Source of the DNA: Poseidonia sp.
GTDB taxonomy: Archaea; Thermoplasmatota; Poseidoniia; Poseidoniales; Poseidoniaceae
Length of the DNA: 64,000 nt
Direction of reading: 5' to 3'
Assembly: GCA_030741355.1 (NCBI GenBank)
Contig: JASLVM010000001.1
Coordinates: 76,087 to 140,086, forward strand
Shown here one piece after another: positions 8,388-60,173 of the stretch. The notes beneath the pieces were generated by a model. That model did not search any database and was not told the origin of the DNA. It saw only the letters and a program-made list of their open reading frames with translations. Each line of letters opens with the position of its first letter. Position 1 is the first letter of the stretch. A program made the position numbers and the translations under genes.

Positions 8388-8425
8388 TTCTATAGAAAGG
8401 AGTCTATCGTATTGAACCCGATAGA
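8388..8425. repeat. Compound dyad element: the palindrome TTCTATAGAA (8388-8397) followed by the inverted repeat TCTATCG-N9-CGATAGA (8403-8425).
   Basis: Read directly. Both share TCTAT / ATAGA half-sites. It lies in the AT-rich spacer between tRNA-Phe and the downstream membrane-protein gene. Confidence 0.5.
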
Positions 8426-8468
8426 ACCAGGGAAAAGGATTCTTGAACTTGAGCGGGCATGCAACATC

Positions 8469-10589
8469 ATGGCGAAGGAGACCGACTCGGAATCCGGCGT
8501 CAAAGAAACCTCCGAGGAGCACGCCAAAGCCAAGGACAAAGAGGCCAAGGAACTCCAAGAAATCCGGCAACGTCGAAGTGGCGGCGGCAAGATGTTCCTT
8601 TCCAAGATCGAAGACTTTGTCTTGATGGGCGGCGTCGTCTACGGGTTGTTGTTTGCCCTCCTTTTGTTCTCGATGTCGTCAGGCATGCTTGGCAACACCA
8701 CCAGCCTTGACCATACGGCCTCAACCACCTTCCTGGATATCGGCGATGAGTGCACCGAAATCACCGATGAGCCTTGGCTCAACATCTTCCCCGACCCAGA
8801 CCAGGAGTTGTTCTCCATTGCGGGCCACAACCTACCCAACGGCGAAGCCTATCTGAACTACACCTTCTTTTCCGTGTCGAGCGATGATACGAAAGCCGTC
8901 GTATCCGAAGACTACGGCTCCAACGAAACCGTGCGAACCATCAACAAAGTTGACCAATCCTACGGGCGTGCGTACTTCAAAGCCCCCTATTCCGAACTCC
9001 CAGAAGGACACTATGAACTCAAATTCACCGTGACCGTCTACGAAGAGCGGAACACCTCCTCAAACAGGACCATGGAGCCCCAATCAAAGAGCATCAAGTT
9101 TGAACACACGCTTTCCAAGGAAGCCCTTGCCTTCCTCCCCTTTGTGAACGATGCCGAGCATTCTGAGGTGAGAATTGAAGACGCTGGACCTCGCTCCTGC
9201 TGGACCGTCCAAGATTTGGGTGATTGGGGCTATATCTTGATGGGGGCAGAACTGGGTGGAGGACGTGAAACCGCCATGCTCACCGGTGGTGCCGCCGGTA
9301 TTCCCGCATGGTGGATGGCGTTCATTTCACTCTCCCTTTCCATCATCACCTTACTCATCATCTACCCGGTGATGTACAAAGTCTACCACCAAGACGCAGA
9401 CGACATCCTCTCCCGAACCCACATTGTTCGCCTGGTTGAGGACACCGTCGAAGAAGTCGGTGAAAAATTGGGTATTGAAATCGATGATGACCTGTTCAAA
9501 ACCGAAGTCAGAGAGCTCTCCATCGACATCATGGTCCCCTACAAAAACACGGAAAACACCCTCTCAGATTCCAGTGAGGTGCGGGCCGAACTGCTCCGCT
9601 CCTTGCTGGAGGAGTTTGCGATCTTCCGAGTCTTCAAGCCCGTTCAACTGAACGTCCGGGTGATCGGCGACGGCCAGATGGTGGACTTTGATTCGGGTGT
9701 TGGTGTCGGATCCCAGGGCCAAGAAAAGGACCTGAAATCCGAGCAACAGGACTATTCAAGTTTCTTTTCCGAACTTCATTCGCTTTCCAGAATTGAAGAC
9801 GACGTTCGAGACAGTTTGGACCTGTTCTTTACCCGCCGTTCTGACGTTGAGATGACCGGTGCTGTGGTGACCAGCGACGACCGTGTGGTCTTCGTCTCTG
9901 TGATTTTCCGGCCCACCCAGCGCTTTGCATGGTTGAGATTCCGCAAAACATCCACACAGATTAAAGATGAATTGTATCGATTCATACACGAGCGTAACGA
10001 GGACCTCCTTGGCTCACAAGAATTGGTTGTTAAGACCCGAAATGAGGTCTCGACGCTCGCCGACAGGTCCGGTGCCGGTCGTGTTGAGCGCCGGTCGCAA
10101 AAAGACGACGAACGCATCGTGGCCGTGGCCAAACAAGATGGATTGGGTGGCAGAGTTCTGCAAACCAAATTCCTGGGCGATACGCTCTCAACGGTGGAAT
10201 ACATGGCCAACGAGAAGCGAGAAATGATCAACAAGTGGGGCTTTTGGGGTCTCATCTTCTTTGTATGGATTCCGTTCATGGCCTCGGGCGTGTTGGTCGG
10301 TGCTATGCTTGGCCTTCTCTCACGTATGCAATTCATGCGTGTGCTGGTGGCCACGTTTATCGGCGGTTCCATCGCTTCCGTCACCTGGGCCTACACGGCT
10401 GAAGGAATTGTAAAATTCATGCACCAATACAAACTCGAAGTGTTCATCCCGTTGGTCATTGGTGTGTTTATTCTGATGGCCGTGTTGCACATACGTTCAA
10501 CCAAGATGCGCCGACAAACCGAATTGTTCGAGGACACACTCCTCGACAACTTCCATGCCGACATCGTGGCCAAATACGGCGACCAGTAG
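8469..10589 (+). CDS. Hypothetical multi-pass membrane protein with a glycosylated-looking ectodomain, a cytoplasmic coiled-coil region and a C-terminal 3-TM domain.
   Basis: Hydrophobic segments include VVYGLLFALLLFSM, AWWMAFISLSLSIITLLIIYPV and C-terminal WGFWGLIFFVWIPFMASGVLVGAMLGLL. Several NxS/T sequons are present. The ORF-track start at 8307 overlaps tRNA-Phe, so the in-frame ATG at 8469 was chosen. The start remains uncertain. Confidence 0.45.
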   Translation: MAKETDSESGVKETSEEHAKAKDKEAKELQEIRQRRSGGGKMFLSKIEDFVLMGGVVYGLLFALLLFSMSSGMLGNTTSLDHTASTTFLDIGDECTEITDEPWLNIFPDPDQELFSIAGHNLPNGEAYLNYTFFSVSSDDTKAVVSEDYGSNETVRTINKVDQSYGRAYFKAPYSELPEGHYELKFTVTVYEERNTSSNRTMEPQSKSIKFEHTLSKEALAFLPFVNDAEHSEVRIEDAGPRSCWTVQDLGDWGYILMGAELGGGRETAMLTGGAAGIPAWWMAFISLSLSIITLLIIYPVMYKVYHQDADDILSRTHIVRLVEDTVEEVGEKLGIEIDDDLFKTEVRELSIDIMVPYKNTENTLSDSSEVRAELLRSLLEEFAIFRVFKPVQLNVRVIGDGQMVDFDSGVGVGSQGQEKDLKSEQQDYSSFFSELHSLSRIEDDVRDSLDLFFTRRSDVEMTGAVVTSDDRVVFVSVIFRPTQRFAWLRFRKTSTQIKDELYRFIHERNEDLLGSQELVVKTRNEVSTLADRSGAGRVERRSQKDDERIVAVAKQDGLGGRVLQTKFLGDTLSTVEYMANEKREMINKWGFWGLIFFVWIPFMASGVLVGAMLGLLSRMQFMRVLVATFIGGSIASVTWAYTAEGIVKFMHQYKLEVFIPLVIGVFILMAVLHIRSTKMRRQTELFEDTLLDNFHADIVAKYGDQ

Positions 10590-10597
10590 GTGAAGCC

Positions 10598-11191: not shown

Positions 11192-11235
11192 CACATCACA
11201 TTCAATAGCCTCACACCACTGGAGGATTACAGAGG

Positions 11236-12651: not shown

Positions 12652-14228
12652 CCAAGCTGGTAAAGCGCACTGTATTTTTGCTCAACATAGCGCAAGAAAG
12701 GTTCAGGGCTGGGCGGTGAACCCGTTGCGTCCTCAATGAGTTGGGCAGGAGAGACTTGACTGCCTCGTTGATGAATACGTGGTCGAAGCCATTCCAACAT
12801 CGGTTTCCAGTCTCCTGAAGCAACCATCTCGTCCATATCGCCCAGATCTTTGGCCATGGCTTCCAGTAATTGGGCAGCATAGAGGTTTCCAAGGGTGTAG
12901 GTTGGGAAGTAGCCAAAAGCACCCATGGACCAGTGAATGTCTTGCAAGCACCCCAGGCGGTCTTCCGGTACATCAATGCCAAACCATGCCTTGAACATGC
13001 TGTTCCAAGCCTCGGGAAGATCGTCCACATCCAATTCGCCGTTGAAGAGTTGCTTCTCAATTTCATACCTTAGCATAACATGTAAGTTGTAAGTGACCTC
13101 GTCCGCCTCGACACGAATAAAGCCTTTCTCAACCCGATTGGCCAGCCGATTAAGCGTGTGTTCATCCCAATCAGGAGCATCAGGGAAATTGGCTCGGAAC
13201 CAGGGCAACACCACTTTCCAAAACGAAGGTGTCCTTCCAATTTGGTTTTCCCAAAAACGACTTTGAGACTCGTGAACACCTAACGAAACGGCAGCCCCTC
13301 GTGGCGTGAATCGGTGATCGTGGTCCAACCCCTGTTCATACAGAGCGTGCCCGGTCTCGTGCATGACGGCATACAGACAGGAGAACGGGTCCACCTCGTC
13401 GAACCGCGTGGTGAATCGGGTATCGCCTGGCCACAAACCTGCCGAGAACGGGTGCGTGGAAGCGTCCATCCGTCCTGCCTCGAAATCAAAGCCCATGTGC
13501 TTTGAAACGGCCTCGCAAAACGCTTTCTGGGCCTCGATGGAAAACACAAGTCCGTCTGGCATCGACGGTTCTTCTACCGTGTTCTGAGCCCGTGTGATGG
13601 CCTCAAGCAAAGGTACGAGGCGCTCTCGCAAACCAGCAAAGAGTGGGTCGTAATCCTCCACCGTCATACCGACTTCGTATTCATCGAGGAGCACATCATA
13701 GGGCGTCGATTGCACACCGAGAAGACCAATCTTTTCATGCGTCAATTCAATCAAACGACGCAAGGTGGGTTTGAAGGCCTCAAAATTCGACTCGGAACGT
13801 GCAGACTGCCATGCGACGAGGGCTTCGGAGCGAGCCTGTGCAAAGGTCTCTACGAAGGATTTCGGCAGACGGACGGCTTGGTCGTAAGTGCGACGCATTT
13901 CACGGACGTTCGCGAGTTGGTCCTCGTTCAGGGTCTTTCCTTCCAATTCGTCAAGCAATTCACCCATTCGTGAATCGGTCAATTGCTCGTGCCGCTTTCC
14001 GGCCAACCATGCCATCATCTCGCCTCTGGAAGACGCTCCCTTGGCAGGCATCAGGACTTCTTGGTCCCAACCAAGATGGCCTTGTAAAGCACCGAGCCGG
14101 TGAATGTCTTGGACGCGCTGGAGGAATTCATCGTAGGGTTCCATGACGAGTTCATGCCTCTGTGCTTCTTCAACACTCCCATGCATTGGCATGGAGAAAC
14201 GCCCTCGGAACATGAAACAAAAAAGCAC
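12648..14228 (-). CDS. M32 carboxypeptidase (carboxypeptidase Taq family).
   Basis: HEXXH in HETGHALYEQG. Family signature DIHWSMGAFGYFPTYTLGNLYAAQ. The true start is possibly the internal MEPYDEF... (14144). Confidence 0.85.
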   Translation of the reverse strand: MLFCFMFRGRFSMPMHGSVEEAQRHELVMEPYDEFLQRVQDIHRLGALQGHLGWDQEVLMPAKGASSRGEMMAWLAGKRHEQLTDSRMGELLDELEGKTLNEDQLANVREMRRTYDQAVRLPKSFVETFAQARSEALVAWQSARSESNFEAFKPTLRRLIELTHEKIGLLGVQSTPYDVLLDEYEVGMTVEDYDPLFAGLRERLVPLLEAITRAQNTVEEPSMPDGLVFSIEAQKAFCEAVSKHMGFDFEAGRMDASTHPFSAGLWPGDTRFTTRFDEVDPFSCLYAVMHETGHALYEQGLDHDHRFTPRGAAVSLGVHESQSRFWENQIGRTPSFWKVVLPWFRANFPDAPDWDEHTLNRLANRVEKGFIRVEADEVTYNLHVMLRYEIEKQLFNGELDVDDLPEAWNSMFKAWFGIDVPEDRLGCLQDIHWSMGAFGYFPTYTLGNLYAAQLLEAMAKDLGDMDEMVASGDWKPMLEWLRPRIHQRGSQVSPAQLIEDATGSPPSPEPFLRYVEQKYSALYQLG

Positions 14229-14242
14229 ACATTCAAGAACAT

Positions 14243-15409
14243 TTGAACAGTACCCGAAACATGGTCCTCCCTTTCCGCCGAAAAGGGTCGGACGAGGACG
14301 ACGACGATATCGTTGACCAAGATATCGAGGACATCATGAACGAGGCAGAAGGTTTGGGTGAAGAATCCGGCGTGACAATTCCTGAAACCTCGGGCGAAGA
14401 TGATGACGTCGACAACGTTGACCCGGCGGAAAAAATGGCAAGAAGCGCACGAACCGTCATCGACACCTGCATGGACGTGCGCCGGGGAGAAAACATTCTG
14501 ATCGTTTGTGACTCAACAACCACCGAAATTGGGCAGGCCCTCCATGACGCTGCAAGCCTTCGCTCGGACCGTGTTCTCTTGGTGGTGATGCCCAAGGGAC
14601 GCCATCATGGCGACGAGCCCCCAACGCCTGTAGCCAACCTCATGAGGCAACAACAAGTCGTCATTGCCCCTACCCGCTATTCGCTCACCCATACCAAAGC
14701 TGTCCGTCAAGCCATCAAAGACGGGTCTCGTGTCGCCACCATGCCCGGTATGACCATTGAAATGTTCACCGAAGGCGGAATGTCGGCCGATTTCAACATC
14801 ATCAAAAAGAACATCGGGGAAATGAGTAACCTCCTTCGAAGAAAGCGAATCATCAACGTGAAATCGGAAACGGGGACCAATGTTACCTTCGAAGTAAACT
14901 GGCGAGAATGGAAACTTGATGATAACGGCATTTGCAATCGCCCCCGCATGCTCACCAACCTCCCAGCGGGCAAAATCTTCACCCTTCCACGAGAAGGAAC
15001 GATGAACGGCACCATCGTGATTGATGGATCTTGGGACTCCGACCTCGTGGACGAACCGGTGGTGCTCCAGATCGAAAACGGACTCGTTATTGATGTGAAA
15101 GGAGGAACGGCAGCAGCTCAAATTCGCCAAACCTTCGGGGAAGCAGCCAAACGCCTCAAGAGCAAAGACCAGGAAAACGTCTGGACCATCGCTGAATTTG
15201 GGTTTGGCATGAACCCTAACGCACGTGTGGCTGGAAATGTTCTAGAAGACGAGAAGCGTTTGGGCACGGCCTATTTCTCGATCGGTGATAACACGACCTT
15301 GGGGGGTTCAGCAGCCGTTGGCATCCAAATATCGGGCGTGCTTGAACGTCCCAGCATCTGGATGGACGAAACATTGCTGTTTGAAGAAGGACAATTCGTG
15401 GCCCATTAA
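14243..15409 (+). CDS. Aminopeptidase, M29-like (COG2309 AmpS family), with a highly acidic N-terminal extension.
   Basis: The C-terminal two-thirds resembles thermophilic M29 aminopeptidases (IAEFGFGMNPNA, AYFSIGDNTTLGG). The N-terminal 60 aa are Asp/Glu-rich (DEDDDDIVDQDIEDIM...). An alternative start is the ATG at 14435. Confidence 0.5.
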   Translation: MNSTRNMVLPFRRKGSDEDDDDIVDQDIEDIMNEAEGLGEESGVTIPETSGEDDDVDNVDPAEKMARSARTVIDTCMDVRRGENILIVCDSTTTEIGQALHDAASLRSDRVLLVVMPKGRHHGDEPPTPVANLMRQQQVVIAPTRYSLTHTKAVRQAIKDGSRVATMPGMTIEMFTEGGMSADFNIIKKNIGEMSNLLRRKRIINVKSETGTNVTFEVNWREWKLDDNGICNRPRMLTNLPAGKIFTLPREGTMNGTIVIDGSWDSDLVDEPVVLQIENGLVIDVKGGTAAAQIRQTFGEAAKRLKSKDQENVWTIAEFGFGMNPNARVAGNVLEDEKRLGTAYFSIGDNTTLGGSAAVGIQISGVLERPSIWMDETLLFEEGQFVAH

Positions 15410-16965: not shown

Positions 16966-19900
16966 TCACGAGCGCTTGTTTTTTGCGAGGTTGAAAATGG
17001 CTCGGGATTGTTCAGCACTCCATCCAGTTTCTTGAAGTTGCATCAGCATCGTTCGTTCTTCTTCACCGTCGCCCATGGCGCCGACCACCCAGTCAACTGC
17101 AGCTTCTCTGTCCTCGGTTTGCCAATCTTCAAAGATGCTCAAGTCAACCTGAATCTTGGCTTTCCGGACCTTCGTTCCCGCCGGTTCATCTCCACCCTGC
17201 ACCACTTTCTTCCTGCTTGCTTTCTTTGGCTCTGCAGATTGTTTTGCCACCGGTGACTTGCTTGGACCTCGTCCGGGAGGGCCGCCCGTTCCTCGCTTGG
17301 GGGGACCTCCGCTTGCGCGACCTGGAGGCGAGGTCGGTCCAGGGCCTGAGGGGCCCTTTGCCCGTGCAGGCGCCTTTCGCTCCGGGGCAGCCCGGGTGCG
17401 AGTTGGTGTTGCAACGGCCTTTCGGTCGAGGCGGTCAAGGAAACTCTCCTCTTCTTCCTCGTCATCGTCAAAGAAGTCGTCGTAATCGTCATCATCTTCA
17501 TCGTCATCATCGCCCCCTCGGAGCACACGAACGAGCACCAACGTCAGGATGAGGAAGACCCCGAAACCGCCGAGTGCGAGCATGATGGTGCCCGCATCAA
17601 CTCCGAAGAGTCCTTCCTCACCGTCGCCTGAAGCCGGAATGTATGGGCACCCATCGTCGTACCCATCAACGCCTTTCGGGTCGTTGGGGCAGTTGTCCGA
17701 GTCGTCCATGACGCCGTCAAGGTCGGAGTCCCGTTCGGAGATGTGGCAACCTTCCTCGTCAACCTGCAAGCCAGGTGTGGTTTTCGGACAGAAATCCGCG
17801 TTGGTGGCACCGGCCACGAATTGGCCGGGCCAAGAAGGATCTCTCGTGGCGTTCCAGGACGGGTCGCCCCAGTTGTCGCCATAGCCGTCAAAGTCGGAGT
17901 CTTTCCATTGCGTTGGGTCACCTCGAAGGGCAGCGGGTTCGTTTTCATCGCGCCACCCATCACCGTCATCATAGCATCCCAAGAAATCTATAGAAGAGGT
18001 CCCTGTTTCGGTGGGGCAGTCGTCAGCGTTGTTGGCTGGCGATGGATTGTCGCCGTAGCCATCCCCGTCTTGGTCAAACCACTGGGTCGCATCGCTGGGG
18101 AAGGCATCACCGGTTTGGTTCACATGCAGACCGGACACCGGGTCGATGTCGTAGGTGTAGACACCGCTGTAGCCATCACCGTCAAGGTCGGTATCAAGCG
18201 CACTCTCATCGGTGCACCCGTTAGCGAGGATGGGGAAGCCGGGCGGCGTATCGTCGCATGCGTCGTCCAAGTCGGAAAGACCGTCGCCATCAGTATCTCG
18301 CTGTGCTTGAGAACATCCGTTTTCGTCGACTTCTTGCCCAGCACCGGTGTTGGGGCAATCGTCCAGCGGGTCGTTAAGCCCATCACCGTCTGAATCAGAG
18401 GTGCGTTGTTCGTTGCTGCAACCATCGCCATCGACGGCAATACCGGACGGTGTATCGGGACACAGGTCAACGTTGTTCTTCACGCCATCATCGTCATCGT
18501 CGAGCTCGGATTGGGAACAGCCTTGCTCGTTGACCGATTCGCCAGCAGGCGTGTTCGGACAGAGCGTGTCAAGTTCGTTGATCACACCGTCGCCGTCGTT
18601 ATCCGCCACGTCAATGAGGCGGCATCCGACACCGTCGGTGCCGTCGAGCACACCGGCTTCATCGGGGCAGAAATCACCCTCAAAGCCTGTGGGATTGTCA
18701 CCAAAGCCGTCACCGTCCCGGTCTCGAGACTGGGTCTTTTCGGACGGGAAGGCATCACCGAGTTCGTCAATACGCAGGCCGGTGTCTTGGTCGATGTCGT
18801 ACACATAGGCGTCCGTGTACCCGTCGCCGTCAGCGTCAGGACACCCGTAGGCATACACCGACAAACTACGGCGGGTTGAGTTCCCCCATTCGGTTGGGCA
18901 GGCATCGAGTTGGATTCCTTCAGCGTTGGAGCCGTTGTACAGGGCCGTCCAGTTGTCGGCGTATCCATCGTCGTCCGTGTCGTTGGCCGCCGCTTTGCGA
19001 AGTGGGAAGCGGTCAGGATTGGTGGCGTTTTCCGATTGGTTATCGCCAAAACCGTCGCCGTCGCTGTCCTTCCATTGCGTGGGGTCAAACGGCCAGACAT
19101 CAGCCCCGTGAACGGTGGCGTTCCATTCGAAGATGCTCCCCTCATCCGAGGGATCGCTGGCGCCGTCTGCGTCGCTGTCAAGGCACCCGTTTCGGTCCCT
19201 GTACGAAGTCCCAAAGTCCCACGGGCAGTAATCACCGTGAACGGTATCGGTGTCGTTATCACCGTACCCGTCGCCATCGTAATCGGCATATTGTGAGGAC
19301 AAGTAAGGGAACAAGTCGCCTGGACCTGCGTTCGGGTCAAAGACGGGCACTGCACAGCAATCGACACCGTGATTATCGCCAAAGCCGTCATCATCGGTAT
19401 CGAGGGCTTGCTTCCAATTACTCTTGAATACATCACCGTCGAAATATTGAGCATCGTTGTCAGACCAGCCGTCCTGGTCGAGGTCCTCACAGCCAAAGCG
19501 GTCAATCCAGGATGTACCGCCTTCGTCATCGCACCCGTCGATTTCGTCCCGGTATCCATCGGTATCGTAATCGGCACAGCCTTGAATCACGAACGAGGAG
19601 GTGCCAAAAGATGTCGGGCAGGCATCAGGCAGAGGTCCAAGCGGGTTGTCGCCGTAGTTGTCGCTGTCACTGTCCTTCCATTGGTTGCCCACCGCTGGCA
19701 TGGCGTCGATGATGTCAAACACCAGGTCTCGGTCTTGGTCAGCGTACAATCGCAGCATGACCACGTCGTCATCGACCGTATCCCAATACGCCATGTGAAC
19801 GGTCCCGTTGCTGTCAAGCGTGGCGTGAACCGGTTCGTTGGTGGTGATGTCTCCGAACATGACCGACATCCAAGAAGCCGTCTGGTGCGAATGGTTGAGT

Positions 19901-23427: not shown

Positions 23428-24084
23428 ATGAAGTCCGCAAGCTGCGTCATTTTCACAGCGGGCGACTGGTGCAACCTCGACATGATTCGGCCACATCTCG
23501 AACATCAGCCAACTGTCCTTGCTTGCGACGGGGCACTTGCCACCTGTCTGGAAAATGGTATCGTTCCCGACGCCGTCGTCGGCGACATGGACAGCGTCGA
23601 TGCGTCCGTCGTCAAACGATTTGTTGATCTTGACGGCCGGGTTCATCGAAGAGAAGAACAAGACAGCCATGACTTGAGCAAAGCCTTGGTGTTGGCCGAA
23701 GAATGGGGCCATCTGTCATGCCTCGTCGTGGGGGCAACGGGAGGAGACCGGGAACACGAGTGGGCCAACCTCCTGACGTGTGCGGCCTCAACCATCGACA
23801 TTGAATGCCTCGGAAACCTCCATACGCATCGGTTTTTCTCCCATGACAAGGAACATTCTATAGAAATTGGAGCGGGAGAAAAGTTCTCACTCTTTGGCCT
23901 GCCGATCGCTGAAGGCATCTCCCTCTCCGGGGCAAAATACACGCTCGAAAAAGCAACGCTGAACATGGGCTCCAAAGGGCTTCATAACGTCGCCGTCGGC
24001 TCGGCGTTGAACATCACGTACTCGGAGGGGCGACTCATGCTTCTGAAACATCATCCTTCGGTGAAGGCGGAAGAAAGGTCCTGA
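23428..24084 (+). CDS. Thiamine pyrophosphokinase.
   Basis: LACDGALATCLENGIVPDAVVGDMDSVD matches the TPK catalytic motif (aDGGan...ivGDfDSi). The start was moved to the ATG at 23428 because ORF-track 23200 overlaps the divergent giant gene. Confidence 0.65.
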   Translation: MKSASCVIFTAGDWCNLDMIRPHLEHQPTVLACDGALATCLENGIVPDAVVGDMDSVDASVVKRFVDLDGRVHRREEQDSHDLSKALVLAEEWGHLSCLVVGATGGDREHEWANLLTCAASTIDIECLGNLHTHRFFSHDKEHSIEIGAGEKFSLFGLPIAEGISLSGAKYTLEKATLNMGSKGLHNVAVGSALNITYSEGRLMLLKHHPSVKAEERS

Positions 24085-24916: not shown

Positions 24917-26230
24917 CTATTCCCACCTGTGCCAAATGCTCCATTCTTGGTCCCACCAGTCAACCTCTCCACCGGGGTGTTGACGCCAAAGCACGCCTTG
25001 GTCGTCGAGGGTGGTCGGCAGCCCTTGCGTGTCAGGTGAGCCATCGGCAAGGACCTGGGGGGTGGGCCCAAGGGCCGGGAGTTCGAGAGCCTCGGGCTCT
25101 TTGTTTCGCACCAAGACGACAAAGACCACGATGGAAACAAGGAACGCCAAAACACCGATGGAAAGCCAACCGACCGATTCGGTTGGCGTGTCCATTCCGA
25201 GCGAGGAAGACGGGAGGTTTGCCGATTCATTGGCTGAAAGGTCGGCGGCTGGAAGACGGATGAGGTTCACGCCCTCTATGGACGAGATCATCTTCTCGGT
25301 TACAACTTCAAGGGTGATGAGGTGGGCCCCAGCAGGAAGGGTGGAGCAGTCAAAGGTGCTGCCGTTGGCGCCATCAATCCGTTGACCCCTCACCGACCAG
25401 ACCTTATTCAAATCCGCATCTGAGCGCCCATCCTCAAGGATCATGCGAACCATGCATGGCGTGTCAGTGGCGTTTTGATGACCTGAAACCGAAAGCGAGA
25501 AATCGGGGGCTGGACGGTTGTTGATGGTGAAATTCAACGTACTCTCTGCGGTTTGCCCAAGGCCGTTTCGGTAGGTCTCTTTGAGCTCATAAGCACCCGC
25601 AGGCCACGAAGAACAATCCAACACACCGTGCGTGTCCAAGACACTGAAGGGGGCGCCGGTGAAGGTTCGAACGCCGGTTTCGCCGTAGCGAGGACCGGTT
25701 TCATCGGAAAATTCTCTGACGATTTCGCAGGTTTCGCCGGTTTGAAGTCCATTACCTGCATTGAGTTTGAGGGCTACTCGAGGCACATCCAAGGAAGGCG
25801 TGAGCATGAACGTCGGAAGCGGGTAGGAAGCGATGAAGTCGCCGTTTTCGTCCAAGAAGTCCAAGCGAAGGACATGCTCGCCTTTGGACCATGCATCGTA
25901 AACAAGGGTGATGTTGGTCTGTCCTTGGAAAGAGATTTCCTGGGTCTCAAGCACTTCTCTTTCCTTGTGCAAGCCTCGGAGTTTGACGATCAAGTCGTTG
26001 GATGCAGCGGTTGAATTCAAAACGACCACAACACGAACGGCATCGATATCGCCGTCTTGATTGGTATCGATGGTGTCGTTGCGAAGCGCGAGAAGGGTCA
26101 ACCCTTGTTCTGCCAACTGTTCTTCAGTGCTCAATTCAGCGGTGGCGGGCAACGGGAGAAGAAGGCACACCAGCAAAAGACCGATGAGAACGGCTCGAGG
26201 GCGGCTAGAGGCGTCATGCATTGGCATCAC
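24917..26230 (-). CDS. Secreted Ig-like / beta-sandwich type-I membrane protein with a Trp-rich cytoplasmic tail.
   Basis: Signal peptide MMPMHDASSRPRAVLIGLLLVCLLLPLPATA. C-terminal TM WLSIGVLAFLVSIVVFVVLV. Tail ends ...GGEVDWWDQEWSIWHRWE. The start overlaps the upstream gene's stop by 17 nt. Confidence 0.55.
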   Translation of the reverse strand: MMPMHDASSRPRAVLIGLLLVCLLLPLPATAELSTEEQLAEQGLTLLALRNDTIDTNQDGDIDAVRVVVVLNSTAASNDLIVKLRGLHKEREVLETQEISFQGQTNITLVYDAWSKGEHVLRLDFLDENGDFIASYPLPTFMLTPSLDVPRVALKLNAGNGLQTGETCEIVREFSDETGPRYGETGVRTFTGAPFSVLDTHGVLDCSSWPAGAYELKETYRNGLGQTAESTLNFTINNRPAPDFSLSVSGHQNATDTPCMVRMILEDGRSDADLNKVWSVRGQRIDGANGSTFDCSTLPAGAHLITLEVVTEKMISSIEGVNLIRLPAADLSANESANLPSSSLGMDTPTESVGWLSIGVLAFLVSIVVFVVLVRNKEPEALELPALGPTPQVLADGSPDTQGLPTTLDDQGVLWRQHPGGEVDWWDQEWSIWHRWE

Positions 26231-32268: not shown

Positions 32269-32305
32269 AAGAACGGTTTAAGCCCAAGTAAGGAAAAGAC
32301 GAGTG

Positions 32306-32313
32306 TTTATATA
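32306..32313 (+). promoter_or_regulatory. Archaeal TATA box TTTATATA about 26 bp upstream of the ribA ATG. Leaderless promoter.
   Basis: Consensus TTTATATA read directly. The distance to the ATG at 32336 equals the canonical TATA-to-TSS spacing. Confidence 0.6.
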
Positions 32314-32335
32314 CAAACTCGGCTGATTTTGTAAC

Positions 32336-47943: not shown

Positions 47944-48011
47944 AGGTCGCCTGTTCTGTGAATTCTCTGACGGGAGGAATCCCTAAGTCCCGATTTCCAA
48001 TCCAAGAAACC

Positions 48012-48245
48012 ATGCCCGAAGCGTTTGTGCTGTTCAAAACCGAACCAACCCACGAGCGCGAAGTCTACCTCTCGTTGACAGAACACGAGGACGTCGCTGA
48101 AGTACACGCCCTCTACGGTGAATTTGATTTGCTGGTTCGAATCAGTTCGCCAACCTCAAAGGAACTCTCCAAACTGCTGATGCAATCGTTCAGGAAGATC
48201 GAAGGCGTCAAAGAAACACAGACCTTGATTGCGGTGGAGGCCTGA
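48012..48245 (+). CDS. Stand-alone RAM (Lrp/AsnC C-terminal ligand-binding) domain protein, 77 aa.
   Basis: MPEAFVLFKTEPTHEREVYLSLTEHEDVAEVHALYGEFDLLVRISSPTSKELSKLLMQSFRKIEGVKETQTLIAVEA. An paralog of the next gene. Confidence 0.6.
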   Translation: MPEAFVLFKTEPTHEREVYLSLTEHEDVAEVHALYGEFDLLVRISSPTSKELSKLLMQSFRKIEGVKETQTLIAVEA

Positions 48246-48247
48246 AC

Positions 48248-48481
48248 ATGGCGATTGGCTTTGTATTGATGACGACCTTACCGGGAGAAGAAGACAGCGT
48301 CCGTCAAGCCCTCAGCAAGGTGGATTTGGTCACCGACCACTGGATGTTATTCGGCGAATACGACCTGATTGCTCGCGTGCAAGCGGACGAAGAATACGCC
48401 CTGACCCGTTGCATCGTTGAGGAAATTCGTCAACTTCCGGGTATCAAAGATACGAAGACACTCATCGGCGCAGAATTGTGA
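48248..48481 (+). CDS. Stand-alone RAM (Lrp/AsnC C-terminal ligand-binding) domain protein, 77 aa.
   Basis: MAIGFVLMTTLPGEEDSVRQALSKVDLVTDHWMLFGEYDLIARVQADEEYALTRCIVEEIRQLPGIKDTKTLIGAEL. Same length and pattern as the upstream paralog, with a 2-nt spacer. Confidence 0.6.
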   Translation: MAIGFVLMTTLPGEEDSVRQALSKVDLVTDHWMLFGEYDLIARVQADEEYALTRCIVEEIRQLPGIKDTKTLIGAEL

Positions 48482-48483: not shown

Positions 48484-50709
48484 TCACAAGACACGGTGCA
48501 GGCGCTCGGTCACGGCCCGAGCGGCGTTGGTGCAACCCGCCTGCCTGAAACATCGAGCAGCTTCTCGAAGCGCTGCGGCGGAGGCTGAGGGGTCCAGGTG
48601 GCCTTTGAGGTACCACCATCTGGCGGCGTAACGGTGACCGGGTGAACCCGCTTCAGCCCAAACGCTCGGGTTCGGCAAAGAAGCGTGAACGGAACGGGCG
48701 GATTCATGGCCTTGCCCCACCAAATGCTCGGCAAACGTGAGACCGACAACGGCGGCATGAAACGGGGTTGTTTGAGCACCAGCGGCCCGTTCATAGGCTT
48801 CGTGGTGAGCGTCATGCGTCTCTTTTCCAAAGGCAAGACTCGCCTTGAATTTGGCATGGAGGACAATGGGGTCGTGCATGTGACTCAGGGCTTCAAGACC
48901 TTCGACCAGGGCCAGAACTCGGGCTTCATCTCCCTGTAACAAGGCGACTGTAAGTTGAATGAGGGTGATGCTGACGGTGATGCTTCCCCTGGTGTTGAGG
49001 TCGTCGGGCAGTCGCACTTGGTTGAGCAGGGATTGCACCTTATGTTCATCCACGGCAGAGGTTTGGTCAAACACACGGTCTTCAATCCGTTGCACGGCTG
49101 CACGCAAAAGCCAGCGCACACCTTCAAGGTCGGAAACAGCGCTGAGTTGGGCTTGCAACAAACGCTCTGCTTCCTCTTCATCGCCTTCAATACGGGCCAA
49201 TTCGTAGGCCAGTTCGGCCCGTAGGGAATCCGACTGGACCCCTGCCAAATGGTGGCGAGCACGTTCCGCCTCCTGACGATGAACGGCGATCCTTCCGGCC
49301 CAATAATGCAGGTTCTCTTGGTCGGGCCGTTGAACCGTCGCTCGGTCAAAAATCACGGCCATTGCACCGCTCTGCTCCAGCATCAACGCATCAAAGCGCT
49401 CGACCATCTCCTCCACGAATCGGTCATCGTCCAGAGCCATGGTGTGGTAGAGGTGGAGCACCGCGTACGCCGGTTCGTCGAGATGATTGGCCCAGTGGTC
49501 GGCGGCCGCCTGGTGCAACTTCGTCAATCGGTTTTCATCGAGCATGGTGCGTCGAACGTTCCGAATGAGATGCTGGATTTCCAGTGAAACATCCTCTTCA
49601 GTCCACCTCAACAAGGCTCGCTCGTCAAGTTCATCGATGGAGGAAGCACCTGGCACCATCGCTGCGGGAAGCGGACGTGGAAACAACACCATGCCGTCCA
49701 AGGCTTCGAGCGCACCCTCATCCAACCCGTCAAGCATGGTCTGCTCAACGAAGGCTTGGATGTCCTCTCCAGCCTCTGGCAACCGGTCACCTTCTCGGTA
49801 GAGATTCAGGGCCATGGGGTGGCCATCCAGTGCTTTGGCCACTTCCAAGCGAAGGGCTTCATCCAAGTGGTCACCCAAAACCTCCTTTGCATCGTGAGGA
49901 GAAAGTGTGCCGAGTTTGAGCAACGGCCAATCAAACCCTTCGGGAAGCGGCAGGCGACCGGCAAGCACAACGGTATGCTCCTTGGCATGAAGGCCATGAA
50001 GCAGATGTTGAACGGCCTTGAGGTGTCGTGGTTCCACCAAGTGGAGGTCGTCAACAACGAGGACTTGTTTTCCACTTTGGCCGATGTGTTCGATCATGGC
50101 CTCGGGGTCAACGGGGAGCGGCGTGGTCTCGGGGAACCAAGCTTGCATCAAAGCATAGGCATCGCTCAACGGGTCCATGGTGGCCCATCGAACAAGATGC
50201 TGGGTGGACTGCGCAGCCCAGGCCTTCAACAGCGTGGTTTTTCCGACGCCGGAAAGGCCACCGACCACCGCACGACGTTCTTCAAGCAACAACTGAATCA
50301 AGGTCTCCAGTTCTCGCTCACGGCCAATGATGCTGAACTTCGATGCGTCGTTGCTGGTCAACTCCGAAGTTGAAAGGGTGTCTTCCGAAGGGTGTTCAGC
50401 CAACCAACCACGCCCTTTTTCGGTGATGTGATAGACTTGCCGTCGCCGAGAGCCACCTCCCAAAACATGGGCAACCCGTACCACGATGAAGCCCTCATCG
50501 AGCAGCACGTTGAGCGGTTGATTGAGACCCGAACGCACCACGCCCATGGCCTCCGAAAGACCGGGCAAGGAAACCGACCGAGGCACGTCCCAAGCGTTGG
50601 AAAGCGCATCGGGAAAGGTCCCGAGATAGCGCAGCAACTTCTCTTGAGAACGGCTCAACATGGGAACGACAAAACAGGCTCGTGCGTCTCCTTCATCAAA
50701 CATCCCCAC
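48484..50709 (-). CDS. Regulator with an N-terminal PadR/MarR-like winged HTH, a STAND/NB-ARC-type P-loop ATPase and a C-terminal TPR-like helical sensor.
   Basis: wHTH ...GSRRRQVYHITEKGRGWL. Walker A GGLSGVGKTTLLKAW. Walker B VLVVDDLHLVE. Long helical C-terminus. Confidence 0.65.
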   Translation of the reverse strand: MGMFDEGDARACFVVPMLSRSQEKLLRYLGTFPDALSNAWDVPRSVSLPGLSEAMGVVRSGLNQPLNVLLDEGFIVVRVAHVLGGGSRRRQVYHITEKGRGWLAEHPSEDTLSTSELTSNDASKFSIIGRERELETLIQLLLEERRAVVGGLSGVGKTTLLKAWAAQSTQHLVRWATMDPLSDAYALMQAWFPETTPLPVDPEAMIEHIGQSGKQVLVVDDLHLVEPRHLKAVQHLLHGLHAKEHTVVLAGRLPLPEGFDWPLLKLGTLSPHDAKEVLGDHLDEALRLEVAKALDGHPMALNLYREGDRLPEAGEDIQAFVEQTMLDGLDEGALEALDGMVLFPRPLPAAMVPGASSIDELDERALLRWTEEDVSLEIQHLIRNVRRTMLDENRLTKLHQAAADHWANHLDEPAYAVLHLYHTMALDDDRFVEEMVERFDALMLEQSGAMAVIFDRATVQRPDQENLHYWAGRIAVHRQEAERARHHLAGVQSDSLRAELAYELARIEGDEEEAERLLQAQLSAVSDLEGVRWLLRAAVQRIEDRVFDQTSAVDEHKVQSLLNQVRLPDDLNTRGSITVSITLIQLTVALLQGDEARVLALVEGLEALSHMHDPIVLHAKFKASLAFGKETHDAHHEAYERAAGAQTTPFHAAVVGLTFAEHLVGQGHESARSVHASLPNPSVWAEAGSPGHRYAARWWYLKGHLDPSASAAALREAARCFRQAGCTNAARAVTERLHRVL

Positions 50710-50767
50710 CCTTGTTTAGGCTGCATGCAGGGTTGCCCTTTTGAGTTAGGGCAGGTGTGGGAGGACC

Positions 50768-52492: not shown

Positions 52493-55400
52493 CGGGACAA
52501 CTCGTCGATGTTGGCCATGTCCTCGATGCTCTCGCCGTGCCGGAGGGCCGGACTCGAGAAGCCGGCCAAGTCGGCGAATTCATGATCGCCAAGTTGAGCT
52601 TTGTTCACCGCCGCTTGCCGGTTGGCCAAGGCGTTCTTTTTCCGCTTCTTCTTCGCTCGTCGTCGCCGAATGTACATCACCAGCAACACCAGGACAATGG
52701 TGGGATAGACCCAGAATTGAATCAGGAAGTAAACCCAACCAATTTGAATCCGGAACGTCAAGTCGTCTGAAAATTCTCCCGGAGGGACGATGTAAGTGAT
52801 GGTTTGGCGACCACCGTCCTCGGTGATGATGACGTTGCCAGCCGAAGAGGAAACGTCCACAACATGAATGCCTCGAGGCAGGGTGAAGGTGATCGGCCCG
52901 GAGTAAGCAGCCCCGTCAATGGGTGATTCCCAAACGCCACCGCCGACTTCACTCGTATCGAATTCGGTGGGAAGTTCGGTGTTGATGAGGCCGGTGGAGA
53001 TGGTGACCGTTTCTTCATTCGTGGGCGGGTAGGTGACGCCATCTGAACCGAAAACAGAGCCTCTCAAGCCTTGTGTGAACACATCCGCAACCATTTGCAT
53101 CGGGCGGTGGAAGACGGATTGGATGCCGCTGGTGACAATACTCACTTTGAGATCTTCAGGGGCCGTTTCGCTCAATTCACCCCAACCGGTCCCCGAACCG
53201 ATGGTAAACTCAACTTCAGGGATGGAAATTGAAAGGGTGATCGGTTCGTCATCACTCACAACTTCATCCGGAGCCTCGATGCCCGAGATTGAGGTGCGGA
53301 TTTCAAAGGCTGAAAGGTCGACTTCTCCAAAGGGGTTGCTTTCGTTTTCTGCGAGGAGAGCCCCGCCACCGTGAATGGCGTCGGTGATGACCTCACCCAA
53401 GCGTTTTGCGAGGTCTTTCATGCCCTGCCGAGTGGCTTCCAATTCAAGGTCGTCGTCGCAGTCATTGAAGTAATCTGAAGCATCTGCAGGTTCGCACCAA
53501 GGGAGTCCCACGCTTGTTCCGAGGGGGTTCTCCATTCGGCTTGAGAGGTCGATGATGAGACGGAGTAAATCCGAGGGCAGAGCCTCCATCTGGCCGCAGG
53601 CCTCAATGTCATCGCCCTCGACGCAACGCTGACCTTCAACGAAGCCAATGCGGTAGATGCTCAAATCCGCTTCGAGCGCCATGGACACGCTGAAAGAAGC
53701 GCTCCATTCGTTGAAATTCACCTTGGAAAGGTCAAACTTAACATCCGACTCGACACAGGTGCTTTGATTGGCAAAACAGAGGACGCGCCCGTCTTCATTG
53801 GTGATTTCATGCTCCCAATCGTAGGGGTCAATACCCGTCAATGAGAGGTTCAGCGAGCCCGACTCATCGACCGTTTTGGTCAAAGTGATGCTGGAGGTCC
53901 CGTCCACGGTGGTCACCCAATTGGGCAAGATGATCTCCACGGTCAAATCAGCAGGCGGCAAGCCACTCAAATCAATGGCGTTGAGGAAGGATTCCCCAAT
54001 GAGCGCTTCTATAGAAAAACCAGCGTTCATGAGGCGCTCGAGGTCGCTGCTTTGGACGTTCTCGAGGAAGTCAATTCCCTCTGAATGGTTCTTTTCGTCC
54101 ATTTGAGCGATGATGATGTCGATGAATCGCATAGAAAACGGCTGACTGGTCGTTTGGAGGTAGATGGGGTAGGTCTCGTCCATCGCGTTTGGCCCTTGCA
54201 AACAATAGTGGAGCACCTGACCGGCAGCGACGGGTTCACTGCATCCCGCAGTATGGCTGTAGTTCAACCCGCCTACGCTATCGTAAATTCCCGTTCCATC
54301 GGCAACGGAAACCCATTGCAAGTCACTCATGGTGATGTCGCCAACGCCCGCAATGGTGTTGCCAAGCCCCTCAACGATTTCACCAACAGGAAACTGATTG
54401 GTGAACTGGGTCAAATCCACGATATCGTTGTGGTACGCCAGTCGAATACCGTCGGAGGTGATGACCGGAATGGAGGCGGAAGAAGAGACATCGAACATGT
54501 TGATGCCCCAATTGTTGAGGGTCTCGGTGTCGAGGTAGGACAGCCCCGCTGCGAAATCAATGGTTGCCGCGTACTCATCTGACAAGTCAAGAACGAGGTT
54601 GAGGTCCACGGCCTTGGTTCCCGGTTCAATGTACACGGTGGGCGTTTCCGAGGAATTCCGATGCGCGAGCTCCAGGTCAACCTTCTGAACCAAATCCGAA
54701 TCGCCCTCCACTGCGTTGAGATGGTCTAACGTCCATTTTGCCGCGTTGTAGTTGGGCGTGCCTGCCCGAAACACCAGGCTGCCGTTTGCGTCGACGTCTT
54801 TCACGGTGGAGTAGGCCGAGGGATTGATGACGAAATCGGCCTTGTGGCCTGGCTTGGTCGTCAAATCAAAACTGGTGTTGATTTCAGCCCCCATCGTGAG
54901 CAGGCCACGGTAGGTCCGCTCCAAATCGAGATTCTCCGAACCCACCAGGTTGAAGTTGCTGGCCAAGAGGTCAACCGAGGCGGTGGCTTGGAAACAGAGG
55001 GGCGGCTCAAACACGTTGTTCTCAGTTGCACCCTCGGCTTGTGAATCCCCGGCAGGGTCAGAGGAACAGGTGGTGGTTAGGCCGCTGCTGGTAAAGGAAT
55101 TCACGTAAGCAGTCGAGAGGCTCGTCACCGTACCAAAACCAGATTCAAGAGCATCCTCGATGGCCTGATGGACTTCGGTTTGCAATTTTTGCCCGACCGT
55201 GGTCGCCCCGTCTGAGGTGTCAAAATAATGGCGAATGAGGTCTGCGGGTGCACCGTCGTTGGCGTCCAGATCATCTCCGTTCGGGTCTTCCAGCGTATCC
55301 CCGACGACCGTCCCTGAACCAAACCCAAGCGAGTCACGCTCAAACTCACGCACAGCCCAATTCAATTCCAACTCAATGGAGGAGGTCGAAATGAGGTTGA

Positions 55401-55608: not shown

Positions 55609-55660
55609 GGTTCAGGGCTAAGGTCGGGAACTTGAAAGCAGTTACCCTCCTGCCCTCGCC

Positions 55661-57806: not shown

Positions 57807-57888
57807 GCTCCGGGATGGACACCACCCCCATGAAAACACCGGCGACGAAGATTGAAACAACATCAATACCAAAAAGGAGGACGAAGAA

Positions 57889-58269
57889 GTGTGGTCCATG
57901 GACGACAATTCGACCTCCATGCCCGACCTGACGCTTGGCTACGGCTTCTTTCTCTTTGCGTGGGGTATCGTTGCTGGCTTGCTTTCAACATCCGATTCCC
58001 CGACCCGCTTCATCCCGTGTTTGCCCGGCGTGGCGTTGGTGGTCAGCGGTTGGCTTGCTAAAAGCAACCCTGAGCGACGAAAGCTCTGGATGCACGTCGC
58101 CGTTGTCGTTGGTTTGATCACTGCGCTATTGGGCACCCGATTTTTCATGGTCGCAAGCGAAGGAATTAACCTCGCCAGCGGGTCCATGCTCATGCTTTTG
58201 CTCACCGGTTCAGCCTACACCGGCCTGTGCGTTCGCTCCTTTATCCAAGCCCGGAAGGCAAGCGAGTGA
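57889..58269 (+). CDS. Small hypothetical 3-TM membrane protein.
   Basis: Hydrophobic segments LGYGFFLFAWGIVAGLL, VALVVSGWLA and HVAVVVGLITALLG. No homology was recognised. Confidence 0.35.
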   Translation: MWSMDDNSTSMPDLTLGYGFFLFAWGIVAGLLSTSDSPTRFIPCLPGVALVVSGWLAKSNPERRKLWMHVAVVVGLITALLGTRFFMVASEGINLASGSMLMLLLTGSAYTGLCVRSFIQARKASE

Positions 58270-58307
58270 AGCGTCATCCTCATGACGGGGGGGGTCGTCG
58301 TCGGCCT

Positions 58308-60173
58308 ATGGCCGAGGAATCCACGATTCTGGAGGTTGAGCTCAAGTCCACGGACAGCCGGGCTCAGCGTCAACTGAACGCTTCGGCCGGAGCGACCGTC
58401 GCCTTCTCCATCGTTTTTCTTATGATGGCCATGTATTTCGGGCCGTCGGTCAGTCAGGACGTTGGGGATACCATCGATTACGAAACAGAATGGTGGAAAA
58501 CGCCGCTTCATCTTCGCCACACCATGGATTTGCCGATGGATACCCTCCGCGGTCAACTCCCAGAAAACGGGTCTTACGACGTCCTCCCGTTCGAGGAACA
58601 CTTCGTTGAAGTGGAACTCCCCGCCAGCGAACAAGACGCCGGATTCCCGGGACCCGCCTTGATGCACGTTGCGCTTTGGCTCCCCGATGTTCCCGAGGGA
58701 ACGAAAATTCCCGTGATCATGACCATTCATCCGTACTATGACTTCGGTGGCGAAGGCGTGGCTGGAGATGACTCCTCGCCCAACACGGTCCCTGACGGCG
58801 GGGTCGGCAAGTGGGTCTACGACACCTTTGTTCCTCACGGTTATGCACTGGCGCAAGCCTCAACCTTCGGCACCGGCCAGTCAACCCACTGTCAAGACGT
58901 CAAGGGACTTGGAGAACAGACCGGTATCCAAGGCGTGGTTGACTGGTTGGGGGAGCAAGAATGGTCCAACGGAAACGTGGGCTTGATGGGCAAATCCTAT
59001 GCCGGCACGACCAACTGGGAAGCCGCTCAACAACCCTCGCCTTACCTCAAGACCATCGTTCCCATCTCGGGCTCGATTGGCGTCCAAGAAATGTTCTATA
59101 GAAACGGCTCTTCAGAGAGCAGGGCCATGCTCTACGACGCCCTTTACGAAGGCGCAACCACCGACGCCACCACCGACGATATGCGGATGTGCACCGACGA
59201 CGTCATCGGTCCGCTCAACCCGTTCTCCACTTGGGCCGGTGCCGAAGTTGGAGGCGCAGAATGGAACGATTACTGGGACGAACGTCGCCACTTGCCCGAT
59301 GTGCTTGCCAATTACCAGGGCAGCGTCTACCTCGTTTGGGGCATGCAAGACTGGAACGTTGACCCCTACCACGCTTTCCCGACCTACCAACTCATGCGGG
59401 ACGCTGGCATCAATGCTCGAGCCATCGCCGGGCAATGGGCCCACAATTATCCCGACCAACCCGACAGACACAGCGAAATGGGAAGCGGCTACGGTGCAGA
59501 AGCCTATCCCAACATGAGCCGCATGGACTGGGCCGTGGAACTCTACGGATGGTTCGACTACTATCTGAAGGACATCGGCGAGGAGCCCGAACCGATGGTG
59601 CAGATACAAACCCATAACGGAAAGTGGCACGTTGAGGAAACCTGGCCACCCGAAGACATGGAATGGTGGCCAATAACACTCGACGGCGCCGAGGGCTCCG
59701 GCGGCACGGTGAACACGAACAACCAGCGAAGCTTCACGCTGCCCCCCTTGGAAGAAGACATCCACATCTCGGGCATGCCGACCCTCCACCTCTCGGTCAA
59801 CACCTTGGCCTGTCAAGGCGGTCAAGTCTTCGCCACCATGTACGCCGACGGCCTTCGAGTGGGCCATGCCACCATGGACGTCCGCTATCGAGACGGTGGC
59901 TACGAGGCCAAAACGGCCCTGCCGTTTTCCGCTTACACCATGCTCATGGAGTTCAACCCGATGGATGTGGACCTTGACGCCGGAGCGGTGATCGAAGTCG
60001 TGATGACCGAAACCGGTGAAGATTACCTGCCAAGCCCCTGTGCGGTGGTTGGCATGAACGTGAACATTGACGCCTCCTCCACCCTAAGCCTGCCCCTCAT
60101 CGACCGGCCTGTCGACGACGACCGGTGGTTCCTTGCCCCACCTTGGTGGGAACAGCAATCGATTCCATCCTGA
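58308..60173 (+). CDS. S15-family (CocE/NonD, Xaa-Pro dipeptidyl-peptidase-like) alpha/beta hydrolase, membrane-anchored.
   Basis: Nucleophile elbow GKSYAG (GxSYxG). N-terminal signal-anchor ATVAFSIVFLMMAMYFGP. The start was set to the ATG at 58308; the ORF track used GTG at 58227, which overlaps the upstream gene. Confidence 0.7.
   Translation: MAEESTILEVELKSTDSRAQRQLNASAGATVAFSIVFLMMAMYFGPSVSQDVGDTIDYETEWWKTPLHLRHTMDLPMDTLRGQLPENGSYDVLPFEEHFVEVELPASEQDAGFPGPALMHVALWLPDVPEGTKIPVIMTIHPYYDFGGEGVAGDDSSPNTVPDGGVGKWVYDTFVPHGYALAQASTFGTGQSTHCQDVKGLGEQTGIQGVVDWLGEQEWSNGNVGLMGKSYAGTTNWEAAQQPSPYLKTIVPISGSIGVQEMFYRNGSSESRAMLYDALYEGATTDATTDDMRMCTDDVIGPLNPFSTWAGAEVGGAEWNDYWDERRHLPDVLANYQGSVYLVWGMQDWNVDPYHAFPTYQLMRDAGINARAIAGQWAHNYPDQPDRHSEMGSGYGAEAYPNMSRMDWAVELYGWFDYYLKDIGEEPEPMVQIQTHNGKWHVEETWPPEDMEWWPITLDGAEGSGGTVNTNNQRSFTLPPLEEDIHISGMPTLHLSVNTLACQGGQVFATMYADGLRVGHATMDVRYRDGGYEAKTALPFSAYTMLMEFNPMDVDLDAGAVIEVVMTETGEDYLPSPCAVVGMNVNIDASSTLSLPLIDRPVDDDRWFLAPPWWEQQSIPS

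Follow-up and report, generated by a model that had tools for sequence, protein, structure and literature searches.

A ten-base palindrome over-represented in Poseidoniaceae genomes and conserved at the DNA level, a candidate recognition site for a symmetric DNA-binding protein

The 64 kb of Poseidonia sp. DNA analysed here (hereafter the window; contig JASLVM010000001.1 of a Marine Group II archaeon of the family Poseidoniaceae, 56% GC) carries five exact copies of the ten-base palindrome TTCTATAGAA. One of them lies between the gene for tRNA-Phe and the next gene, and the other four lie inside the genes for thiamine pyrophosphokinase (TPK), a TrmB-family protein, a protein of 1039 amino acids and an S15 (X-Pro dipeptidyl) peptidase (Table 1). 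A first-pass annotation, made from the letters of this DNA, had listed these five copies and called the palindrome over-represented, and both statements hold. A third-order Markov model (Markov-3) predicts 0.007 copies (P=1.7e-13), and dinucleotide-preserving shuffles contain a mean of 0.01 copies, with none of 100 shuffles reaching five. The palindrome is the sole outlier among all 1,024 ten-base palindromes in the window; when all palindromes of 6-12 bp were tested, the nested series CTATAG (7 observed versus 0.75 expected), TCTATAGA (6 versus 0.07) and TTCTATAGAA alone stood out. The tetramer TATA is scarce in the window, and 6 of its 16 occurrences fall within TCTATAGA; the full 10-mer is present at five of the seven occurrences of CTATAG. 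The motif has a density of about 1 per 12-13 kb in the window, and related loci totalling 0.89 Mb give the same figure.

Several further statements of the first-pass annotation could be sharpened. The near-copy that it placed at 17987-17994 is real and has the form ATCTATAGAA, but it is one base wider on each side than had been reported; the same one-mismatch form is also found in a relative (L083). The extra A said to follow all copies is indeed present at all five exact copies of the window, but it fails as a general rule, as any of A, T, G or C can follow the independent sites in relatives. The eleventh base is hence a window-specific coincidence or a weak preference and not part of the motif. 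The remark that a restriction-modification target would be avoided rather than enriched is borne out: the motif is enriched several hundred-fold, and CTATAG, TCTATAGA and the 10-mer are all over-represented. The annotation had also named an origin of all copies from a single duplicated segment as an outcome that would undermine its proposal. The 60-nt flanks of all six window copies (the five exact ones and the near-copy) are unrelated, and because these flanks share nothing, the copies represent neither a duplicated segment nor a mobile element. Membership in a class of dispersed repeats, such as miniature inverted-repeat transposable elements or repetitive extragenic palindromes, is rejected likewise, as the 31 site families that we delineated in relatives (see below) also differ in their flanks.

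Table 1. Copies of the palindrome and other features of the window mentioned in the text
Feature	Position	Strand	Sequence or reading	Remarks
Exact copy, tRNA-Phe intergenic region	8388-8397		TTCTATAGAA	part of 12-bp palindrome TTTCTATAGAAA, 8387-8398; intergenic
Exact copy, TPK gene	23856-23865		CAT TCT ATA GAA	H-S-I-E
Exact copy, TrmB-family gene	34510-34519		CGT TCT ATA GAA	R-S-I-E
Exact copy, 1039-aa gene	54007-54016	-	TTT TCT ATA GAA	F-S-I-E
Exact copy, S15 (X-Pro dipeptidyl) peptidase gene	59094-59103		TTC TAT AGA A	F-Y-R-N
Near-copy, 2112-aa FG-GAP gene	17986-17995	-	ATCTATAGAA; TCT TCT ATA GAT	S-S-I-D
tRNA-Phe (GAA)	8270-8345	+		neighbour upstream of intergenic copy
Conserved block	8430-8448	+	GGGAAAAGGATTCTTGAAC	BRE-like + TATA-like; centre ~26 nt before ATG 8469
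Gene downstream of tRNA-Phe	8469-10589	+	start MAKE...	706 aa; C-terminal Sm_multidrug_ex membrane domain
Box C-like heptamer	8380-8386		GTGATGA	directly 5' of intergenic palindrome
Motif arms lacking central TA	15240-15247		TTCTAGAA	one of the five CTAG of the window
S-I-E with ATA, no motif	24917-26230		TCC ATA GAG	contains CATAGAG
S-I-E with ATA, no motif	34838-36076		AGC ATA GAG	contains CATAGAG
Examples of lineage promoters	32298-32335; 50740-50767; 55630-55660; 62268-62299			box and BRE
Stand-alone Lrp/AsnC ligand-binding (RAM) domain genes, tandem	47958-48245; 48248-48481	+		no DNA-binding domain
wHTH-STAND NTPase gene	48484-50709	-		regulator-like

Within genes the palindrome is read as S-I-E (T TCT ATA GAA) in the TPK, TrmB-family and 1039-aa genes and as F-Y-R (TTC TAT AGA) in the peptidase gene, in agreement with the earlier reading of the frames; the remaining third frame of TTCTATAGAA holds TAG on both strands. 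The use of the rare isoleucine codon ATA had also been pointed out, and in the window ATA indeed accounts for 3.8% of isoleucine codons, while AGA makes up 4.6% of arginine and TAT 29% of tyrosine codons. Because these are minority codons, a codon-aware model that keeps the proteins unchanged predicts only about 0.014-0.022 coding copies, against the four observed. Furthermore, ATA is used in 5 of 11 S-I-E tripeptides versus 28 of the 887 other isoleucine codons (Fisher P=2e-5), and in none of the 73 x-I-E contexts of the window. Two other S-I-E tripeptides use the rare ATA codon within CATAGAG, lacking the motif; these may be decayed or incipient sites. A lone TTCTAGAA has the arms of the motif joined directly (Table 1).

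We assembled a comparative set of about 2.2 Mb. It comprises 80 loci recovered with the S15 peptidase from species-representative genomes (69-99% identity, GC 0.37-0.63; nearly all labelled Poseidonia, Poseidoniaceae or Poseidoniales, that is, Marine Group II archaea), 80 more loci from a metagenome scan with the M32 carboxypeptidase, and ten loci from look-ups of TrmB-family orthologues. The motif occurs at orthologous positions across genomes of 38-62% GC in many independent assemblies. The first-pass annotation had proposed to look for enrichment in relatives, and it is present in every GC class, with Markov-3 comparisons of 34 observed to 0.04 expected copies at GC >=0.53, 10 to 0.14 at GC 0.47-0.53, 42 to 0.32 at GC 0.43-0.47 and 7 to 0.44 at GC <0.43; these class counts are not independent because the loci are orthologous. 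Clustering by flanks yields 31 families of TCTATAGA sites, several of which represent the single tRNA-Phe site with unalignable flanks. The full 10-mer is present in about two thirds of these families, and the deviations fall mostly on the two outermost positions (ATCTATAGAA, TTCTATAGAT/G, CTCTATAGAA). About 80% of the sites are intragenic. One contig of the set (NZEQ01000058.1, L001) bears the title 'Verrucomicrobiales bacterium ARS100'; since its proteins are 99% identical to those of the window and it sits among Poseidonia metagenome-assembled genomes (MAGs), either the binning or the label is probably wrong.

The intergenic copy offers a view of the motif outside coding sequence. It lies 43 nt past tRNA-Phe, with its centre 76.5 nt before the ATG of the next gene. 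According to comparison with relatives this ATG is the start of the gene, so the copy is truly intergenic. The 706-aa gene is the only window gene that has the palindrome in its upstream region. Across 12 related loci of the high-GC clade (M32 identity 78-98%) the motif forms the invariant alignment columns TTCTATAGA in all 12, with both spacers unalignable. Only three islands are conserved between tRNA-Phe and the next gene: the 3' end of the tRNA, TTCTATAGA(A), and a block consisting of GGAAAAGGnTTCTTGAAC and then CATGGCGAAGGA. The distance from the motif core TCTATAGA to this last block is constant at 33-35 nt, while that from the tRNA to the motif ranges over 33-49 nt. Two other clades have TCTATAGA closer to the start of the orthologous gene, centred about 47 nt before the ATG in one and about 33 nt in the other. 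Across clades it is the presence of the motif in the tRNA-Phe intergenic region that is kept, and within a clade its register. The conserved block is most likely the promoter of the downstream gene, because its centre fits the promoter pattern of the lineage described below, and its position would imply a leaderless mRNA. The heptamer GTGATGA directly 5' of the intergenic palindrome resembles a box C; the idea of a C/D-box small RNA was dropped as the heptamer is not conserved in relatives, and it is probably fortuitous. In the clade with GC of about 0.45 (L122-L160; e.g. L137, reverse strand, ~5470-5510) a different conserved block, ATCGTTGGGTTCATGTGCTATGCCTTTCTGCTTGAACT, is found downstream of tRNA-Phe just before the orthologous gene start. 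Possible identities of this block are a promoter, a 5' leader and a small RNA.

The sites inside genes allow the contributions of DNA and protein to be separated. In TPK, S-I-E or S-I-D is written TCT ATA GA[A/T], at or beside the site, in 13 of the 14 loci that reach it, as well as in L207. The residues on both sides of this tripeptide are not conserved, and the DNA word appears to dictate the amino acids here. In the M29 peptidase gene of the clade with GC of about 0.45, CTT TCT ATA GAA is present in 34 of 37 loci; no synonymous change is seen in these four codons among 21 distinct sequences, while 23 of the 24 other fully conserved degenerate codons within +/-30 codons vary (hypergeometric P ~2e-4, computed by hand). 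The TrmB-family site is unchanged in L207 (91% identity, GC 0.48). At this position most orthologues have G-I-E, and the other lineages with S-I-E or S-I-D write it AGT ATA GAA, AGT ATA GAG or TCG ATC GAC; the motif coincides with S in place of the commoner G. The site in the 1039-aa gene is confined to the window and its conspecific L001. The nine closest sister species encode the same F-S-I-E as TT[CT] TC[CA] AT[TC] GAA, and the site is therefore a recent species-specific gain through two synonymous changes to rare codons; together with the TrmB-family site it speaks for a gain of sites that is still going on. The 1039-aa window protein itself had no exact match in the contig collection. All 80 loci share the protein motif IGVQEMFYRNGSSE unchanged at the S15 peptidase site, whereas the DNA motif is present in 27 of the 80, scattered over GC 0.40-0.61; the loci lacking it have TAT CGA, TAC CGC and similar codons, and the one-mismatch form TTCTATCGAA persists in many lineages. 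Protein conservation hence contributes at the peptidase site. As the sole cause of the recurrence it is rejected on account of the intergenic copy, the synonymous invariance restricted to the motif and the TPK site. The earlier claim that conservation acts on DNA and not on protein is thereby upheld by the absence of synonymous variation in M29, the intergenic island and the TPK tripeptide that lacks a conserved protein context.

The TATA at the centre of the palindrome invites comparison with the promoters of the lineage, which we modelled from about 365 (365-371) upstream regions of high-GC loci. In these regions A+T content and the frequency of TTGA, TTTT and CTTG are highest at -30 to -23 relative to the ATG, with maxima of AAAG and GAAA at -39 to -35. 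This pattern indicates leaderless mRNAs with a TATA-like box of the form cTTTtGAag and a G/A-rich B recognition element (BRE). The box is centred about 26 nt before the ATG with the BRE at -40 to -32, as seen in the examples of Table 1. Literal TATA is essentially absent from -30 to -23. Genome-wide there is a strong depletion of both TATA (16 per 64 kb) and CTAG (5 per 64 kb). The zone 23-30 nt before a gene start holds none of the five window copies, the in-gene copies are not at promoter distance, and no conserved BRE-like flank was found beside the copies, either in the window flanks or in the site families of relatives. A canonical archaeal BRE/TATA box is therefore rejected as the identity of the motif: the box of the lineage is cTTTtGAag, and the copies lie at -76.5 or deep in genes. 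As for a conventional operator, which would be expected at promoters and in graded variants, there is one promoter-linked site with fixed spacing, the great majority of sites are intragenic, and variants are not enriched.

Taken together, these observations are consistent with TTCTATAGAA being a recognition site on duplex DNA for a putative two-fold-symmetric, homodimeric DNA-binding protein of Poseidoniaceae, likely with a genome-wide role; we give this proposal a probability of about 0.5. Recognition by a symmetric protein is the best explanation because the motif is a perfect palindrome, is found in genes of either strand, in two reading frames, as well as in non-coding DNA, and stays exact under selection on DNA. 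The first-pass annotation had likewise suggested a site for a dimeric DNA-binding protein; the DNA-level signal that this presupposes is real, and the dimeric protein is the best-fitting inference from it. We infer the binding, the dimeric state and any effect of binding from the form and distribution of the sites. Under this proposal the site would consist of the core TCTATAGA and two outer positions with a preference for T/A. Purifying selection on the DNA itself would keep the sites exact. They would be scattered at about 1 per 12 kb, mostly in genes wherever the protein permits S-I-E or F-Y-R, with a few beside promoters, and at least one, that upstream of the gene after tRNA-Phe, would be held in fixed register with a promoter. 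A protein of the ribbon-helix-helix type would suit so compact a palindrome. The likely role would be in chromosome organization or segregation, as with the sites of archaeal SegB or bacterial Noc, SlmA and ParB, or in binding a global regulator.

The sites of the Sulfolobales SegAB system are the closest described archaeal analogue. SegB, a ribbon-helix-helix protein that compacts and bridges DNA, binds the 13-bp palindrome TCTAGA-S-TCTAGA at ~40-49 scattered sites, of which ~83% lie within genes; SegAB is also widespread among Euryarchaeota, with a motif there that is undefined and possibly different (bioRxiv 10.1101/2025.02.07.637068). Like the SegB sites, our motif is a short perfect palindrome of TCTA/TAGA half-elements that is conserved across genera, and its copies are scattered by tens to hundreds, mainly in unrelated genes with few at promoters. 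In contrast to the 13 bp and nearly invariant AGA-S-TCT core of the SegB sites, it has 10 bp of the form TTC-TATA-GAA with a TATA centre, so that the SegB core is absent; the five CTAG of the window are never in TCTAGASTCTAGA context. Its density is also about five times higher here, and the window has neither segAB genes nor a site cluster. The bacterial Noc-binding, SlmA-binding, matS and parS sites resemble it in being palindromic, often located in genes and conserved at the DNA level across families. Such sites occur in tens of copies, are bound by dimeric proteins and exert their effect by where they lie on the chromosome, not by way of the host gene. They differ from the motif in being 12-16 bp long, somewhat degenerate and regional (origin-proximal, in Ter, or excluded from Ter), and are bound by the bacterial ParB, TetR and MatP families. 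By analogy the motif may work like SegB sites or like the Noc, SlmA, matS or parS sites; we do not claim membership in any of these classes.

Certain observations weigh against the proposed binding site. A Pfam scan of the 48 open reading frames (ORFs) of the window detected no ParA/SegA, ribbon-helix-helix or DNA methyltransferase gene and thus no candidate binder, a ParA/SegA gene was seen neither in the window nor in the related loci retrieved, and no cluster of sites of the kind found beside segAB or parAB was observed. TCTATAGA is absent from 15-21 kb around the TrmB-like gene in six other Poseidoniales lineages; because of this the motif density is probably lineage-dependent, and the system may be lineage-restricted or many of its sites only weakly selected. 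The peptidase site is labile and partly explained by protein conservation. Finally, degenerate variants of TTCTATAGAA are not enriched, as the window has 11 sites with up to two mismatches against about 8.5 expected (five two-mismatch sites in addition to the lone one-mismatch site). Such all-or-none exactness is less what one expects of ordinary operators than of enzyme sites or of motifs generated by drive, such as the cyanobacterial HIP1 and the Neisseria DNA uptake sequence (DUS). 

The only DNA-binding candidates in the window are the TrmB-family protein and a winged helix-turn-helix (wHTH)-STAND protein, neither of which is linked to the motif. The gene for the latter adjoins a tandem pair of stand-alone RAM-domain genes (Table 1). 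A scan of IMG/VR for two copies within 31 nt, as expected of an operator array or the binder's own gene, returned 38 hits on A/T-rich contigs of giant viruses or phages that have no relation to Marine Group II archaea. One more hit from this database (L198, UViG_3300033112_000368, GC 0.57) has, at 14224-14300 beside a small gene, 30-bp tandem repeats with the 14-bp palindrome TGTTCTATAGAACA and GTTCTTGAAC. These form an operator-like array on a contig that is apparently unrelated and probably from a bacterial phage. Our literature search found no paper treating TTCTATAGAA or TCTATAGA as a prokaryotic motif and nothing connecting Marine Group II archaea with an over-represented palindrome.

Among the alternatives, the exactness just described brings to mind a process like that behind HIP1 (GCGATCGC), in which a methylation-linked or very-short-patch-type repair bias converts near-matches to the exact palindrome, or an orphan methyltransferase uses it as a target with an epigenetic role, so that the sites are not positional docking sites at all. 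HIP1 too is an exact short palindrome over-represented in coding and non-coding DNA across a lineage. The lack of an excess of degenerate variants, the presence of the motif in coding DNA wherever the frame allows at the cost of rare codons, the two-substitution gain in the 1039-aa gene and the patchy spread among lineages would all fit such a process. So would the concentration of deviations at the outermost positions, where deviations from HIP1 are likewise reported to fall (Elhai 2015). However, HIP1 is GC-rich, has 8 bp and occurs about once per kb, whereas the motif is A/T-rich in a GC-rich genome and its density of about 1 per 12 kb is 10-30 times lower. The one-mismatch forms TTCTATCGAA at the peptidase site should have been erased by a strong conversion drive, and the fixed distance of the intergenic copy to the promoter is unexplained by pure drive. 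HIP1 embeds targets of known orphan methyltransferases, whereas no known methyltransferase is linked to the motif, and none is encoded among the 48 window ORFs scanned. The motifs in the published methylomes of Marine Group II archaea are GATC, CGCG, GTAC, GAAAC and AGCT (PMC8919816), none of them similar, although a site with about 150 copies could have been missed there. Overall we regard a HIP1-like origin as rather unlikely.

We consider it still less probable that the motif is a symmetric TATA-like element bound by the TATA-binding protein, be it as an internal, antisense or bidirectional promoter or as a sink for that protein. Such a role would account for an A/T-rich core built on TATA in a genome where TATA is avoided elsewhere, and TCTATAGA differs from promoter boxes such as TCTTTTGA at only two of eight positions; moreover, in two other clades it lies closer to the orthologous ATG, at about 47 and about 33 nt. 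Yet the promoters of the lineage use another box, the intergenic copy of the window lies upstream of a separate BRE/TATA block, the copies lack a BRE-like flank, and promoters tolerate degeneracy whereas the motif is exact. A further candidate is a signal for recombination, repair or uptake, like Chi, the DUS or the uptake signal sequence (USS) of Pasteurellaceae, where a machine acting on DNA ends or incoming DNA reads the exact 10-mer and copies accumulate by weak collective selection or drive. These signals share with the motif the enrichment of exact words (8-12-mers) in coding DNA against codon preference, family-wide 'dialects' and turnover by point mutation, and the gain and loss of sites as well as the use of the same word throughout the family agree with this. 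Nevertheless, the known Chi, DUS and USS words are non-palindromic, some are strand-biased, and at about 1 per 1-5 kb they are 5-10 times denser than this perfect palindrome. Several sites have been fixed at orthologous positions for very long, one of them in promoter register, which suggests a site-specific rather than a purely collective function. Competence or RecBCD-like genes, the kind of machinery known to read such signals, were not seen in the window; we deem this account very improbable. As for the absence of any real feature, through chance, duplication, a mobile element, assembly artefact or a by-product of protein motifs, the invariance of MFYRN at the peptidase site explains part of the recurrence. 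This reading is nevertheless refuted for practical purposes, given P ~1e-13, unrelated flanks, the same sites in dozens of independent assemblies, and a conservation of DNA that extends to an intergenic copy, to synonymous positions inside the motif only and to a TPK tripeptide lacking protein context.

In surface seawater Poseidoniaceae belong to the most abundant archaea, and Marine Group II remains uncultured. To our knowledge, almost nothing has been established about chromosome organization, segregation or regulation in these archaea. TTCTATAGAA is a further case among the lineage-wide palindromic genome signals maintained by selection, and from the comparison of relatives conservation at the DNA level can be generalized to the whole family. 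It offers a clear case of non-coding information within coding sequence, and it accounts for odd runs of rare codons (TCT ATA GAA, TAT AGA) as well as for an S-I-E that is conserved where the protein otherwise varies. A further use may be as a lineage marker for binning Poseidoniaceae contigs. More tentatively, and at somewhat less than even odds, we propose that Poseidoniaceae use this previously undescribed genome-wide cis-element, in perhaps 150-200 copies per genome, as a signal read by a dedicated symmetric protein to organize, segregate or globally regulate the chromosome. If so, the signal would override the codon choice and in places the amino acids of unrelated host genes, and it would represent a euryarchaeal counterpart or functional analogue of the chromosome 'address' sites of the SegB/Noc type. 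As a 10-bp word under measurable DNA-level selection in many independent MAGs, the palindrome provides a concrete experimental handle on the chromosome biology of these organisms.

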